A stretch of DNA of 64,000 nt, taken from assembly GCA_951406725.2 (NCBI GenBank), contig OX597816.1, positions 166,904,001-166,968,000 on the forward strand. Reading direction: 5' to 3'. The notes under the pieces were generated by a model. It was not told the origin of the DNA, made no database searches, and saw only the letters and a program-made list of their open reading frames with translations. Of this stretch, positions 726 through 61,211 are shown piece by piece (position 1 is the stretch's first letter; each line of letters opens with the position of its first letter). The position numbers were made by a program, and so were the translations under genes. This DNA comes from Octopus vulgaris (taxonomy: Eukaryota).

Positions 726-808
726 AGCACGATGGCCGAGTGGTTAAGGCGTTGGACTTAAGTTCCAATGGACGAATGTCCGCGTGGGTTCGAACCCCAC
801 TCGTGCTA
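726..808 (+). tRNA. trnL-TAA: tRNA-Leu (anticodon TAA), eukaryotic, long variable arm
   Basis: Acceptor stem AGCACGA(726-732)/TCGTGCT(801-807), discriminator A808; D arm TGGCCGAGTGGTTAAGGC; anticodon stem TTGGA/TCCAA with loop CTTAAGT (TAA 759-761); variable arm GGAC-GAAT-GTCC; T arm GTGGG-TTCGAAC-CCCAC; no encoded CCA. Confidence 0.96.
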
Positions 809-5065: not shown

Positions 5066-5501
5066 AAGGTCATCACCATAATCATCATCAACATAATCAC
5101 GGAGCACACAACACATGCTGAAATCTAATCCGCATTTCTTCCCCCCCCCCCATCCTTCTCGTTTCCTGTATTTCTCGTATCCCTTCGCTCACTTCTCTCT
5201 CTAACTCTCTAACTCTCTCTCTCTCTCTCTCTCTTTCCCTCTCTCTCACACTCTCCCTTTCTCTCTCTCTCCCTCTCTCTCTCTTCCTCTCACTCTCTCG
5301 CTCCTCTCTCTTTCTCTCTCGCTCCTCTCTCTCTCTCACATAACTAATAAAATTCACATTTCAATAGTTATTCCTTATTAATATCTTTACACTGAAGCTG
5401 TTCTGAATTCTTTTGCACCAAATTCCGATTTGTTCTGATTTTGGCGCAAAACTATTCAGAACGCTGGCAGACTTCAACGTGACGAGTTTGAATTTTCTCA
5501 C

Positions 5502-5582
5502 TTGGTAAATCTTGCTGATGAGAGTTTAGGATTTTTCGCCAGAACTCGAAATCGTGACACAAGAGTGTCATCCAAGTGCCAG
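5502..5582 (+). ncRNA. type I hammerhead ribozyme
   Basis: CTGATGA 5515-5521; stem II GAGTTT/GAACTC; GAAA 5548-5551; stem III T-(CGT bulge)-GACAC-AAGA-GTGTC-A; triplet ATC with predicted cut after 5572; stem I CTTG/CAAG extended by TTGGTA/TGCCAG across an AAT bulge. Confidence 0.75.
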
Positions 5583-5737
5583 AACCTATAGCTGTAATGG
5601 TGTGTCTAAATTCTTCACCCGTTTGCCCGAATACTGTTGTTTTCTGATGTGTTTTTCAGTGCTATTCGTGGGTTTTAACTCCTATTTCTAGCAGGTAAGT
5701 ACCTCGTGTGCCCTTTTGATATATATATATATATATC

Positions 5738-6059
5738 GGGAGAATTCACATGAAAAAACAAAAGACAAAGACAGGTGGTGTAGACAACAACGCTCTGGAA
5801 ATGAAAAGGTCTTTAACGTTTCGAGCCTACGCTCTTCCACAGAAAGAAACAAGGATAAAAAATAAAGAATGTGTAGCGATCGCTAGCCACTACACATTCT
5901 TTATTTTCTCTCCTTGTTTGTTCCTTTCTGTGGAAGAGCGTAGGCTCGAAGCGTTAAAAACATTTTCACTTCCCGAACGTTATATTAATACATCTGTTTG
6001 TTGTCTACACCACCTGTCTTTGTCTTTTGTTTGTTTTTTTGTTTTTTGTGAATTCTCCC
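5738..6059. mobile_element. palindromic (foldback) element in (TA)n, probably Penelope-like derived
   Basis: Arms GGGAGAATTCACA...AAGACAGGTGGTGTAGACAACAA...GAGCCTACGCTCTTCCACAGAAAG...AAAGAATGTGTAG match their reverse complements on the right; ~13-nt loop near 5877-5889. Confidence 0.8.
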
Positions 6060-6210
6060 TATATATTACACGCTCACGTGGTTGCACCAGTTGATCCTGT
6101 ATCCTCTCATCACCCACGAACTTCTACAGATTCTCTACTGGACTTTCTACACTTCAGCTGCACCTCTCCTGCCTATGGATTTCACTGGACTCCTCTGTTG
6201 ATGAAAAATC

Positions 6211-10709: not shown

Positions 10710-11982
10710 CAGGGGTTAAACAAAATAATGGAAACACCTTAAAATTTCAAAGAAATTTATTTTAATATGGGAAAGGGTCGCCTTTGGCAGTAATTACAGC
10801 TTGAATCCTACGAGGTAGAAGTTTGAATGGTTTCCGAAAAATTTTTGTCCATTCTTCAGCTAAAACAGTCTCCAATTCTTGTAGTGATGATGATGGAGGA
10901 AATCGACTCCTTATTTCTTTTCCAAAAATGTACCATAAGTGTTCACTAATATTGAGATCTGGGGACTGAGGTGACCAGATAAGATGTTCAACTTCACTAG
11001 AATGTTCCTCGTGCCATTCAGTAACAACTTTAGCTGTGTGAATTGGTGCATTATCATCCCGAAAGGTTGTGTTTCCCTCCGGAAACAGTTCTGCAACCAT
11101 AGGATGAATTTAATCAGATAAAATGCTTAAATAGTCTTAACTATTAATTCTGCCATAAAGAGAAACCATTGGGCCGGCGGATTTCCAAGATATAGACCCC
11201 CCCACTCCCAGATCATCACAGATCCTCCTCCGTGTTTAAAAGTTGGAAGAACGCAGTCTGGGTCAAATGCTTCTTTTGGCTGTCTCCACACGTATACTCG
11301 ACCGGTGGTCGGAAATAAGGAAAAGGATGACTCGACCGAGAAAATAACATTCTTCCACTGCTCTGGGGGGCCAATTCTGCAGGTTTTTACTCCACACTAA
11401 GCGCTTTGCAACGCTTGTTTTTGAAAGTAGTGCTTTCTGATTGCAAACCTCCCGTGAAATCTGGCTTTGTGCAACTCTCGGCGAACAGTTTTTTTTTTGT
11501 GGAAACTGGGTTCTTGAGGTGGTCATTAAGCTCTGCAGTAATTTTGGGAGCTGTACTTTTGTGATCCTTTCTAACAATTCGCGTAAGAGTCCGACAGTCC
11601 CCATCTGAAAGTTTTGGTTTTCTTCCGGAGCTTTGTTTCGACAAGGAGGTTTTTCCCTCTTTCTCAAAGACTGTCAATACTTTCGAGACAGTATCTCTTG
11701 ATACACCAAACATTTCAGCTGCTTTCGTTACGATAGCGCCTGCCATATGAGCACCAACAATTTGATCTCTTTGAAAGTCCGATAGACCTGTCATTTTAGT
11801 GAATTTTAATTACCTTTTTCTGATGATATCTGAAAAGAAACAGCAATTTTAGCAAAACATGTTAAGCAAAACTAATAATAAATCAAAAACATAAAAATAA
11901 ACAAGCTTTAGACGGTTTTATAGATATTTCAAAATTATGATGCTATGATGCTAGGTGTTTACATTATTTTGTCCAACTCCTG
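10710..11982 (-). mobile_element. Tc1-like DNA transposon with DD36E spacing (Incomer-like), full length but inactive
   Basis: 29-bp TIRs CAGGGGTTAAACAAAATAATGGAAACACC (10710-10738) and GGTGTTTACATTATTTTGTCCAACTCCTG (11954-11982), 4 mismatches; TA on both sides. Confidence 0.93.
10762..11794 (-). pseudogene. Tc1-family transposase, frameshifted
   Basis: MTGLSDFQRDQIVGA HTH, SGRKPKLS linker, VIFSVESSF (first D mutated to V), FRDDNAPIH, WSPQSPDLNISEHLW; split across frames with stops. Confidence 0.92.
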
Positions 11983-43992: not shown

Positions 43993-45455
43993 GCCTTTGC
44001 ACAGCTTCTAACGCTGGAGATGTACTACAGTGTCAGCTGTTCACTATCAGTAAACTAAGGTAACAGCCCTTATTTTTCGAGCACCTTCCAGAGTATTCAA
44101 GCAGTTCCAAGCAGTGCTGTTTTCTGCAAGTGCTTCACCCTTATTTGTTCCATGTACTTCTCAAGATTTTTACTTACTGTTCCCAGGGCTCCGACAATTA
44201 TCAGTACTACTACCAACTTTTTCATCAACCACAACTGTTTAACCTCCCAAAATAATCTGTCATATCTATCGACTTTTCTTTCTTCCTTATCGCATACCTT
44301 GTTGTCAGCTGGTCATGCTATATCTATGATAGTTTGCTTTCCCTCTCAATTAAGACTATGTCTGGTTTCCTATTCTCTATCTCATGGTCGCACTGAATCA
44401 TAAAATCCCATAGGCTCTTTGCATATCTATTTTCGATTATGCCTTCAGGTTTGTGGTTGTACCAAGTTTTTGCTCTGTCAAGTCCATACTTGTAGAGTGT
44501 CCAATGGACATGCTCTGTTGTTTTCTTCCGCTCTAATGCTGTGTTCACATCCAATAAGTCCTCTTCCCTCTCTTTTTCTTGGTACATACAGTCTGTCTGT
44601 GTCCCTTTTTGGGTGGAGTGTTCCATACCTGGTTAGTAACTTCCTTGTCTTTCTGTCTAAGCAGTTTAGTTCATTTACTGTCCATGTGATTACCCCTGCT
44701 CCATATCTAAGGAGTGAAGCCACCCAGGTGTTGATAGCTTCAATCTTATTCCGTCCGTTTAATTTCAACTTAAGGATCAGTCTCAGTCTGCGCAAGTACT
44801 CCACCTTATATTTTTCTGACATTTCTTTCTCCATCAATCTATCCATTTCCAATATCCCCAAGTACTTATAGCCTGTCTCTTCTACTTGCTTCATAACCTT
44901 CCCCAACAGTATCGTTAGCCTGTCCATACATTTGATTTTGCCTATCTTTAAGACTAACACACCACACTTTCTCAGTCTGAACTCCATTCTGATATCAGAA
45001 GGTATGCATTGTATCGATGAGGGAACTGACTTGGGCTTCATCTTTACCATAAAGTTTGAGGTCATCCATGAATAACAAATGGTTGACTTCTTGTTGGCAG
45101 CTTTTGAATACATTGCGGCATCAAGCACAGTGCAAAGATCAGTGGAGACAAGCAGTTCCCTTGGAAGATGCCCCTCCTGATTTCTACTGTCTCTAAACTT
45201 CTTCCGTATGCCATCAGGTCCGTCCTCCAATTCACCACACTTTTTCCAAGCAATCGCTCAACATTCGATACAATACCAAATAGGTTCATACATTCCATAA
45301 TCCAAGAATGTGGGATCATATCATATGCCTTATGATAGTCGATCCATGACGTGGCTAAGTTACTTTTCCTCCTCTTGCAGTCTCTAAGTACAGTTTTGTC
45401 TATCAAGAGTTGATCCTTGGTACCTCTGCACTTACGCTTGCAACCTTTCTGCTCA
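43993..45455 (-). mobile_element. R4/Dong-like non-LTR retrotransposon (RT plus restriction-like endonuclease), 5'-truncated and frameshifted
   Basis: EQKGC...[104 protein letters not shown]; 3' end abuts (TAA)n at 43883-43992. Confidence 0.92.
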
Positions 45456-46004
45456 TATAATACAACACAGACATTTAAATTGACAGGGTTTTTCTAAAGA
45501 TGTGGGCAGTACTTGTCAGCACAATCTTTTGGATTTCTCTGAGACATGGTTCTCCTGGGATGTTATCTAGATGCTTCTGACATTACTTTTTTATCATACC
45601 TAGGGCACCTACAATAACAGGAACAGTTCTCACTTATATGTGTATAAGTCCTTAGTTGAAAAATACCTGTTGTTATGTCCTGTTATTTGTATTTGTGTAA
45701 CATTATCCATTTTTTTTGTGTCCTTGTTTCCATAGACATTCGCTGCTTTCTTCCAAGGAATCTAATGCTCTTAGCTTAGTTTTTCCTTGAGGCTGGCCAG
45801 ATTGGAGCAATCTCGAGTATAACCAGCTGAAATTGCAAAGATAATCTAGAACTTGACTGAGGAAAGAAAACTCCAACTGACCCGTCCTTGTTTTCTTTGT
45901 ATCATCTATCTGGATATTTTGTTGTTCCTTTTTTGTATCACCTATCTGGATGTTTTGTGTTTTTGTCCCATTTTGTATTTTTTATATATATGTATGTATA
46001 TGTG

Positions 46005-58907: not shown

Positions 58908-60916
58908 TTATAAGATTCTTTCCATATAAATGGCAAAATATAATGTGCCTTTCTTATCTGAATATCCAGCAATTAGTTTTGGGAAAAAACTGTCCTTCAA
59001 GTACCCATCGGCAATGATATCTTCAAGCTGTGATATCTCAACATTGTTTTTGAATGTGCCTTGTCTGGAAGGGTCTTTCCTGAAAATGACTGAAAATCTT
59101 GGTCTTTTATACTTGCTGGAAGTGTCCAAGTATGTCATAACACGGTGTGCCTTAGCATTTGAGACAACGGTCTCAGTCAGTTCCTTCAGGGAAATATCTA
59201 TGTATTCTTTGTACTCTTTTACAGGTTTCTTTTCCAAAATGAAACACACTTGTGGTTCTTGATCAATGTGGACAAAACTCTGGACTCTTGGGACATAACC
59301 CTTCTCATTATAAACTTGAGCAAACAATTTGTAACATTGGGAATATTGTCGAATTCCAAATCGAATATCAACAGGTTCCTCTTTCACCGTATCAAATAGT
59401 GCCATATATCTGTTTTTGTCTGTGTGTGCGAAACTGATATAACTCTGTAATAAAGACAGATATACATTTTCCTTGGAATAAAGATGTTTGAAGTGGAGCA
59501 AACCCTTCTCGTCAAGCCCATGCTCCAGATAGAAAGAACTAAGACTTTCATCTGGGTTTATTTTAGAGATAACAGAAAAATAAGATTCTCTATTATACTC
59601 AAAAGCATTTATCCATTCAATTTTGAAGTGTTGGTCTTTAATAGCATTGACATATGCTGAAATATGGTGTTCAGACAACTTGTATTTAATAATTTGCTCG
59701 TTAACTCCTACATGCCCTACCCGAATATCGGCCAAATCATAAGAGAAGTAATTAGCACCATTTTGCGACCAATCTTTGAAATAATTCATGAAGTTTTGAA
59801 CTGGTAATGGTTTATTGTGACCACCAACTAATAGCATAACAAATGTCTCTGAAGACATATATGAGGAATTACCTGGATTCTGAACCGTTTGTAAGAAGTT
59901 CCGGTGGCACAACAGCATACCATCAATTATGCCATCTCCTTCCAGACAAACTCGACCATGTTTGTTCACATTTAGGTTAGCACCAACCCATGAGCCTGAA
60001 GCTTTCATTTTTCTTGGTTTTGCCAAGAGACTTTTGATGGAAGATTTTTTAAGTAATCGATGTGTACCAGTATGATCCAAGCATCGAAAAAAGCGCATAA
60101 TATCATAAACATTGGTATACCAGCCATCAGTGAGAGAGACCACCTCCCTCTCTAGGTGTAGAGAATAAGTTGTATTAAAGTTTCCGACCAAGCTACGTTT
60201 AACCATATTTTTTATCCTGTTTTCTTTCATATGTTTTCCGAATCTTGTATGCCACATTCCACAAGGCTCCAAAATATTTTTCCTTACAAATGTTGGATAA
60301 TCATAATTTTGAACTTTCTCAATAATTTGGTCCAGAATAACATAACCAAGATGAGAATGAACTGATTTTGTTCCTGGTTTAAAATTCAGTGGAATCGACA
60401 TCATGTATCTGAAAATATCCTTCATTTCAGCAGTGTTCTTTAACTGCATGATGGAAGTGATGTTTGGAATGCGATAACCATTCTTTAAGTAAATAGAATT
60501 CAGAACTGGATCAAACATTGGTGGCATAGCTGAATCCCAGCCACCAGCATGCCGAAGAAGGTCATCGACTATAATGTCATACAGCCTGTTGTCAGTTCGA
60601 AAAATGCTCCAAGGTCGTAAGTGATTCAAAATTCCAAACTTACCAAAGACTTTAGCAGTAAGGTTCACTTTACCATTTTCAACAAGTTTAAGAACGGATA
60701 CAGCAGTGAGTAATTTAGAAATATTTGAAGCTGGAAACAAGACTTCTGGTGTCATTTTAACATTGTTCTGTGTACTGCCATAACCATGGGAGTATAAGAG
60801 TTTCCCTTGGCGCATCAAAGCAACAGATGCACCCCGATATTGGAATTGCTTTAAAAATTTCTGGAAAGATTTGTCAAAATTTGCATTGTTCTCAAGACTT
60901 GGTCTTCCGTTGATTC
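58908..60916 (-). CDS. terminal coding exon of a beta-lactamase/PBP-fold protein with five C-terminal BTRD1/polyglycine-hydrolase-like repeats; upstream exon(s) not identified
   Basis: Uninterrupted frame of ~668 codons; acceptor TTTTTTTTTCATTTTCTCCTTAG| at 60917 (phase 1); begins INGRP...FDKSFQKFLKQFQYRGASVALMRQGKLLYSHGYG; family motifs FPASNISKLLTAVSVLKLVENGKV, DDLLRHAGGWD, LNFKPGTKSVHSHLGYVIL, ILEPCGM; stop TAA at 58908-58910. Confidence 0.9.
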
Positions 60917-61211
60917 CTAAGGAGAAAATGAAAAAAAAATAACATTAATTAGAATAACAATATTTTGATTAAATTTTATAAATTAAAAACCTAAAGAAGT
61001 GTTATAAATTCAGAACATGCTAGTTGGAAATATAGTGACTATACATTTACAGGTTTATTGGTATTGTTGAAAACAGTAGATGTACATCCAAAAATGAATA
61101 GCATTAAACACACAACAGATTAGTTCAAAATTATACACACACATACACACATATATATAAGAAATTAAATAAATGACAAGGAAAGAAGGAATTATGTCAT
61201 GAACTTCATTG

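Follow-up and report, generated by a model that had tools for sequence, protein, structure and literature searches.

The hammerhead motif at positions 5502-5582 of the window, by which we mean the whole 64,000-nucleotide (64-kb) stretch of DNA analysed, is real and beyond chance; it is not solitary, and in its native form it is not intact. It very probably belongs to a 5'-truncated, decayed copy of a non-LTR retrozyme in which a dimer-type hammerhead has lost its U16.1, and the complete-looking motif is likely inactive and lies in a shifted register. Most likely the stretch is a decayed and unremarkable example of an element type already known.

A full paired type I hammerhead descriptor has, with both strands scanned, a single match in the window (5515/5572), and any match at all occurs in 1 of 100 locally shuffled windows. 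This descriptor was substituted for a loose pattern without pairing constraints, whose 16 matches against a mean of 15.4 are at chance level. The 81-nt piece 5502-5582 has a folding z of -2.67. In the register read by the first-pass annotation, here called the shifted register, a full core, an AUC triplet and three helices are present on paper, and the features described are indeed in the sequence: the core letters CUGAUGA, GAAA and AUC (5570-5572), the G-C closure of stem II (5522/5547), the bulged stem UUGGUA-AAU-CUUG / CAAG-UGCCAG, and CAG/GTAAGT at 5694/5695. The outer complementarity suspected between about 5466-5489 and 5608-5627 pairs in the fold of 5440-5660. A scan of the window with profile model R1 gives no second hammerhead copy; R1 was built on the shifted register, and its match to 5502-5582 is therefore by construction. 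The proposed Infernal check against Rfam gives no hammerhead match: none passes the gathering score anywhere in the window, and none appears in 5300-5800 with the limit relaxed to E<=10. The Rfam hammerhead models likewise give no match at 8 other loci and seem to miss hammerheads of this family's class. Weak miRNA-like Rfam matches at 5398-5464 reflect a hairpin formed by a 32-nt insertion. Coordinates are collected in Table 1.

Table 1. Parts of the hammerhead-bearing repeat copy, in window coordinates
Feature	Position	Strand	Remarks
5'-truncated copy of the 482-nt repeat	5349..5720	+	consensus about 163-482 plus 1-33; about 84-87% to consensus
32-nt insertion	5399..5430	+	resembles inverted copy of adjacent hairpin arm
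Outer helix, 5' arm	5466..5489	+	also paired in folded family circle
Competing helix, 5' strand	5499..5505	+	pairs 5572-5578 and sequesters C17 of the shifted register (fold)
Native stem I, 5' strand	5510..5514	+	pairs 5560-5564; carries A-U to U-A compensatory pair
Core C3-A9, CUGAUGA	5515..5521	+	sequence, alignment
Stem II (closing pair G10.1-C11.1), containing an internal loop and a U-rich loop	5522..5547	+	
G12-A13-A14-A15.1	5548..5551	+	sequence, alignment
Native palindromic helix III (family AUCAUGAU), degraded	5551..5558	+	G at 5554, C at 5558
Native H17; predicted family cleavage 3' of this base	5559..5559	+	
3-nt insertion building helix III of the shifted register	5567..5569	+	1/35 rows
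AUC and stem I 3' strand of the shifted register	5570..5582	+	
Outer helix, 3' arm	5608..5627	+	fold
Donor-like site	5692..5700	+	family form CAG/GTAGG; GTAAGT private here
(TA)n run at 3' junction, likely insertion target	5717..5737	.	

Searches of the genome against itself identify window 5349-5720 as a copy of an old, dispersed, non-coding 482-nt repeat. The query 5340-5700 has at least 60 matches of 71-88% identity excluding itself (40 of 109 candidates scored), and the full unit has at least 80 (40 of 377 candidates scored); family copy numbers are lower bounds. The description of the motif as solitary holds in that one unit stands at the locus, but the locus belongs to a dispersed repeat family. 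The unit repeats head-to-tail, has a GC content of 0.34 and a longest stop-free frame of 56 aa, and has the make-up of a non-LTR retrozyme: non-coding, low in GC, within about 150-1000 nt and bearing a type I hammerhead. The predicted fold of the circularised unit has -124 kcal/mol, compared with -88.7 +/- 5.0 in 40 shuffles, and an AT-rich hairpin accounts for part of this. Mean identity to the consensus is 84.3% over 69 pieces of at least 150 nt from the 51 loci examined. More than one contiguous unit occurs at 13 of 51 non-redundant loci (92 pieces; longest 770 nt), and both orientations are present at 23 of the 51. The family therefore forms partial head-to-tail tandems, and the window locus is a truncated monomer. 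Two consecutive complete motifs, the mark of an "active" element in the accessible text of Li et al. (2026; 10.64898/2026.07.22.740005), are not found in the window, which holds one motif; one family locus has two cores at a distance of 485 nt, and helix III of the first is degraded.

Ends of the copies cluster. The 3' ends fall at consensus 28-63 in 36 of 92 pieces and at 187-205 in 15 of 92, both regions being AT-rich and mostly followed by microsatellite, with the bias that loci were chosen by queries spanning the hammerhead. The window copy ends at the commonest of these sites. Eleven ends at consensus 158-173 are in part internal (TAA)n expansions. The neighbourhood of the native cleavage site (15 nt to either side) holds just 1 of 184 piece ends, which fits a circular template and is likewise biased by the choice of loci. 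Taken with the tandems and inverted arms, the (TA)n ends of this non-coding hammerhead repeat favour the retrozyme or Penelope monomer that was among the first suggestions for the motif. On testable features, the sequences suggest that the family is a metazoan non-LTR retrozyme and would work like the others. About ten 5' ends or inversion junctions gather at consensus 213-242 (L003, L010, L023, L057, L076-L079), a hairpin that is also the site of the 32-nt inverted insertion of the window copy and possibly a place where reverse transcriptase pauses or switches. The paralogues compared lack the 32-nt insertion (joint 5398-5431 in paralogous contigs); the orthologues in organism A and organism C carry it (X4 record 9 is ungapped here).

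The donor-like site had been taken as a hint of transcription on this strand. The perfect form CAGGTAAGT occurs in 1 of 74 copies that cover the position and is a private mutation, while the commonest form, CAGGTAGGC (CAG/GTAGGC), occurs in 23 of 74; the perfect donor therefore does not support transcription, and no spliced read turned up. Positions 5608-5843 are covered by a contig from a run that is presumed, by guess, to be RNA, but at 17 substitutions and a depth of 2.9 it does not count as evidence of expression.

The family's own hammerhead lies in another register. Alignment A1 holds 35 of 41 profile matches, leaving out L027 (a 9-nt insertion) and five partial matches. The family sequence at the core is GAAA-UCAUGA-U-H-CAAGU, in which an 8-nt palindrome, AUCAUGAU, at window 5551-5558 forms helix III, H17 falls at 5559 and stem I pairs 5510-5514 with 5560-5564. 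Covariation and sister families that share AUCAUGAU show the native hammerhead to be of the dimer type, with a predicted cut after 5559 and not after C5572, the earlier predicted site, which is valid in the shifted register only. The fast natural monomeric type I hammerhead first proposed thus gives way to a palindromic dimer architecture. A short palindromic helix III that needs a dimer is the usual metazoan type I design in the available portions of PMC4209133 and PMC3088659.

Over the 35 rows, and with relatedness ignored in both cases, the native register has 17 cells changed on both sides against 7.5 in shuffles (reached in 0/500), and the shifted register has 8 against 5.8 (101/500). In native stem I an A-U pair becomes U-A in 7 rows, possibly through one inherited event, and one row retains the palindrome through a C-G swap. 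Stems I and II covary in the family, and helix III is palindromic. The shifted register scores 1/500 on percent paired and 15/500 on the covariation score, and minimal pairing is seen in 16 of 19 core-intact rows for it and in 14 of 19 for the native register; these sequences suggest that it is latent family-wide. Its far stem I strand has a downstream partner of its own (46 of 59 copies form 5-6 of the 6 pairs), and 5570-5582 natively form part of the outer stem I and of a downstream hairpin. Fold probabilities for native stems I and II together are 0.77 in the consensus and 0.95 in the insertion-free allele, against 0.01 and 9e-8 for the shifted register. In layout and duplex energies, two copies nest as a double hammerhead with an 8-bp helix III. 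RNAalifold predicts no consensus structure.

Support also comes from outside the 482-nt family. The core followed by GAAAUCAUGAU has 185 matches genome-wide against 2 for a reversed control. Twelve loci were inspected. Five sequence types other than the 482-nt family are among them, and in each a different stem I begins to pair immediately after AUCAUGAU-H: the pairing is clean at 8 loci and has one mismatch at L095. A further 2 loci belong to the 482-nt family, and L089 is an exception. Several repeat types whose stems I and II are unrelated thus have an identical AUCAUGAU helix III (L085-L088, L092-L096), and cross-family double hammerheads are possible in principle through this shared palindrome.

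Within the family, 16.1 is U in 31 of 35 rows, and the 5' core strand, stem II closure and GAAA are intact in 19 of 35. An A at 10.1 (10/35) and G17 (4/35) are odd for active ribozymes. In one A1 subfamily, A-A replaces G10.1-C11.1 (9/35 rows; for example L011, L017, L018, L026 and L029), often with C or U at H17. Two further structures were considered and rejected. A hairpin hiding the second AUC has no covariation support (342-444 of 500 shuffles score equally high), and a viroid-like off-switch helix is simply native stem I.

The window copy retains C3 U4 G5 A6 N7 G8 A9 and G12 A13 A14 A15.1. The view that all core positions are conserved is correct for the shifted register only; natively C5558 stands at U16.1, with H17 at 5559, and the A15.1-U16.1 pair is lost in the double-hammerhead layout. 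The native cleavage site appears, from its sequence, to be broken because U16.1 is C. Self-duplex energy of the helix III palindrome is -2.4 kcal/mol for the window copy against -7.2 kcal/mol for the family. Hammerhead mutants at 15.1/16.1 lose at least 10-fold in activity according to the accessible part of PMC3088659, and the NHH rule as given in the available text of PMC3884650 would allow some residual activity.

The completeness of the motif comes from three inserted bases. Helix III of the shifted register consists of 2 bp, a 3-nt bulge and 5 bp and depends on the insertion at 5567-5569, which is seen in 1 of 35 aligned rows and has a single exact match genome-wide. Homologous copies are dispersed through the genome, and the insertion-dependent fold described in the first-pass annotation occurs once. 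The insertion is missing from organism B (X2 record 2, 5436-5778, 1 substitution) and from organism C (X4 record 11, 5454-5643, 0 substitutions). It is present in two organism-A runs (X1, X5), one organism-A run possibly being the assembly's own source, and two other organism-A runs do not cover the site. Among the further runs, X6 has no aligned contig, X7 stops short of the motif and X9 has no orthologous piece of any length. Because all 34 paralogues are without it, the insertion is derived; it is also recent.

In exactly 5502-5582, the probability that stems I and II form with C17 free rises from 0.003 without the insertion to 0.86 with it, and the shifted fold dominates there with P 0.89. 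The predicted minimum-energy structure slips in helix III to a 7-bp helix that pairs U5571. When six upstream and eight downstream bases are included, the shifted fold falls to 0.008-0.009 with C17 paired, and in four longer contexts the predicted probability of formed stems with free C17 is 0.007-0.05, because CACUUGG pairs CCAAGUG over C17; these nearest-neighbour energies are without tertiary core contacts and uncalibrated on a known active hammerhead. The accessible fold is thus not predicted in longer contexts, where C5572 is unpaired with a probability of 0.07-0.24. The CACUUG(G)/(C)CAAGUG helix, named early on as a possible competitor, wins in every longer context tested, and it is strengthened by the rare G5576 (2/35 rows). 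The complete-looking motif is therefore modelled as a shifted register made by the 3-nt insertion, and it is likely inactive.

The same insertion could instead have rescued the ribozyme: after the loss of U16.1 it would have given the latent register a stable helix III, and the organism-A monomer would cut after C5572, perhaps while still being transcribed and ahead of closure of the competing helix. In favour, the shifted register has every consensus core base, the gain in the 81-nt piece is from 0.003 to 0.86, longer contexts improve the active fold by about 4.7 kcal/mol, and the insertion is in both organism-A runs that cover the site. The collapse of the fold on adding 14 flanking bases speaks against such a rescue, as does an active fold that lies 8.8-11.8 kcal/mol above the ensemble. 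Co-transcriptional folding would offer little advantage, because the 5' strand of the competitor lies upstream and its 3' strand includes C17. Moreover, stem I of the shifted register is altered in both runs, by an extra A following 5506 in X1 and by T5503C in X5. We regard this outcome as unlikely. If it were true, three bases would have moved the cleavage site 13 nt downstream, supplied a new helix III and made a monomer-competent ribozyme, and persistence of the inactive ancestral allele in sister organisms would make the birth of a hammerhead architecture directly assayable. Should the shifted register cut, sister-organism alleles would be a cheap natural test of the change from a dimer-type to a monomeric hammerhead.

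Domestication as a host ribozyme with a regulatory role in a transcript, which had also been raised, would fit a locus common to organisms A, B and C with the 5' core strand, stem II closure and GAAA intact, as they are in 19 of 35 family rows. The orthologues of organisms B and C, however, lack the insertion that builds helix III of the shifted register, both covering organism-A contigs carry a change in its stem I, and C5558 is common to the contigs of B and C, which have 0-1 substitutions. Since B and C are almost identical over the whole stretch, the sharing would point to recent ancestry and not to constraint. Of the long frames listed near the site, none looks like a host gene, the only clear one being at 58908-60944. 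The single-copy locus with a conserved fold that a domesticated ribozyme should present is not what is found, and domestication is extremely improbable.

Penelope-like elements bear on how the preferred element, a decayed non-LTR retrozyme, was mobilized. The genome has many GIY-YIG matches and intact 781-aa frames with reverse transcriptase (RT) and GIY-YIG domains, and the family has Penelope footprints in its 5' truncation, inverted arms and microsatellite target. The unit has no DNA similarity to 12 GIY-YIG loci (12 of 148 matches; 6136 candidates), and in no copy examined does it flank an RT + GIY-YIG frame. Among 67 partly redundant loci searched by tblastn, RT/EN matches occur only in L037/L073, where they belong to a distinct element that has a (TA)n end of its own and lies about 700 nt from the unit, and as a 64-aa match in L078 about 3.5 kb from the unit. 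We infer, rather than identify, a Penelope-like helper enzyme for the 482-nt unit because the 12 loci checked bear no resemblance to it and no examined copy is joined to a frame.

It is also conceivable that the unit is the pseudo-LTR (pLTR) stump of an extinct autonomous Penelope-like element and that the copies are its 5'-truncated ends. Inverted arms, 5' truncation, microsatellite targets, a donor-like site and a hammerhead with a palindromic helix III all match Penelope pLTRs in the accessible portions of PMC8557442 and PMC4209133, and an intact element in this genome has a 456-nt pLTR that ends in (TA)n. Against this origin, copies that exceed one unit (13/51 loci) re-enter the 482-nt unit and never an open frame, and the tblastn matches to RT/EN belong to the separate L037/L073 element or to the distant L078 match. 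A pseudo-LTR stump is thus very unlikely, though somewhat less so than domestication. L053 carries a Penelope-like element of this genome (430-885, 906-1985, 2245-4590 and 5217-5672), which is also found at L054 and L073. It has the 781-aa RT + GIY-YIG frame, a frame of 359 aa upstream that matches nothing in Pfam, terminal repeats of 456 nt that are 99% identical and end in (TA)n, and, by eye, hammerhead-like motifs with a palindromic helix III.

Comparison with known systems favours the retrozyme. Metazoan non-LTR retrozymes, as described in the consulted parts of PMC7229834 and Li et al. (2026), share the non-coding, low-GC unit of a few hundred nucleotides with one type I hammerhead, the monomers with partial tandems, the stable predicted circular fold and the presence of Penelope-like elements in the genome. 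The axolotl and newt motifs of these sources resemble the present one in that the monomer is weak and the dimer functional. In the portions consulted, retrozyme units of coral, mussel and axolotl are shorter than 482 nt; the present family differs further in being old (84% to consensus) and in showing no long array, and the window copy differs in being cut down to part of one unit, in which the native core is broken. Penelope pLTRs share the palindromic helix III that needs a dimer (PMC4209133) and the 5' truncation, partial tandems, inverted 5' copies, microsatellite targets and donor-like site near the motif (PMC8557442), as far as the consulted sections of those papers go. The differences are that no family copy examined is attached to an RT-GIY-YIG frame, that helix III of the family is an 8-nt palindrome and that its stem I is long, with an internal loop, and not minimal as in the accessible text of PMC4209133. 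Amniote intronic type I hammerheads, isolated and conserved in the parts of PMC7229834 and PMC3088659 available, are also lone motifs in non-coding DNA, whereas the window motif is one of many paralogues and its apparently intact fold is absent from the closest organisms. Among the titles and abstracts covered by a literature search on octopus with hammerhead, none concerned octopus retrozymes.

The following history would account for the window copy. Active ancestors would have been transcribed as multimers, and two ancestral copies would have paired via the AUCAUGAU palindrome into a double hammerhead, cut after H17 and had the product circularised, in line with the model in the accessible text of PMC7229834. 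A Penelope-like RT/GIY-YIG enzyme may then have made a nick in (TA)n, started priming where the RNA is AT-rich and continued copying beyond a single unit. The window copy would have inserted as a truncated single unit and drifted neutrally. Template switching in near-palindromes is a mechanism by which insertions arise, and it likely made both the 3-nt and the 32-nt insertions. The family modestly supports Penelope-type mobilization of animal retrozymes from circular or multimeric RNA, as proposed in the consulted part of PMC7229834 and argued for in vertebrates in that of Li et al. (2026). It also illustrates that reading a single sequence can misplace a hammerhead cleavage site in the wrong register.

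Several other features occur in the window. A fold-back repeat at 5738-6062 adjoins the same (TA)n as the 482-nt copy and has enormous depth in DNA runs. Each of its arms has, by eye, a minimal motif resembling a hammerhead, in which position 6 is U and an additional A precedes stem II, and the repeat also lies near the 482-nt unit in L002, L020, L026, L027 and L029. A tRNA match of 63 bits with a long variable arm is at 726-808 (+). By eye, a frame at 11387-11809 (-) resembles a Tc1/mariner transposase fragment and one at 44478-45493 (-) resembles a non-LTR reverse-transcriptase fragment. The 678-aa open frame at 58908-60944 (-) has a beta-lactamase-family domain and is likely a host gene exon.
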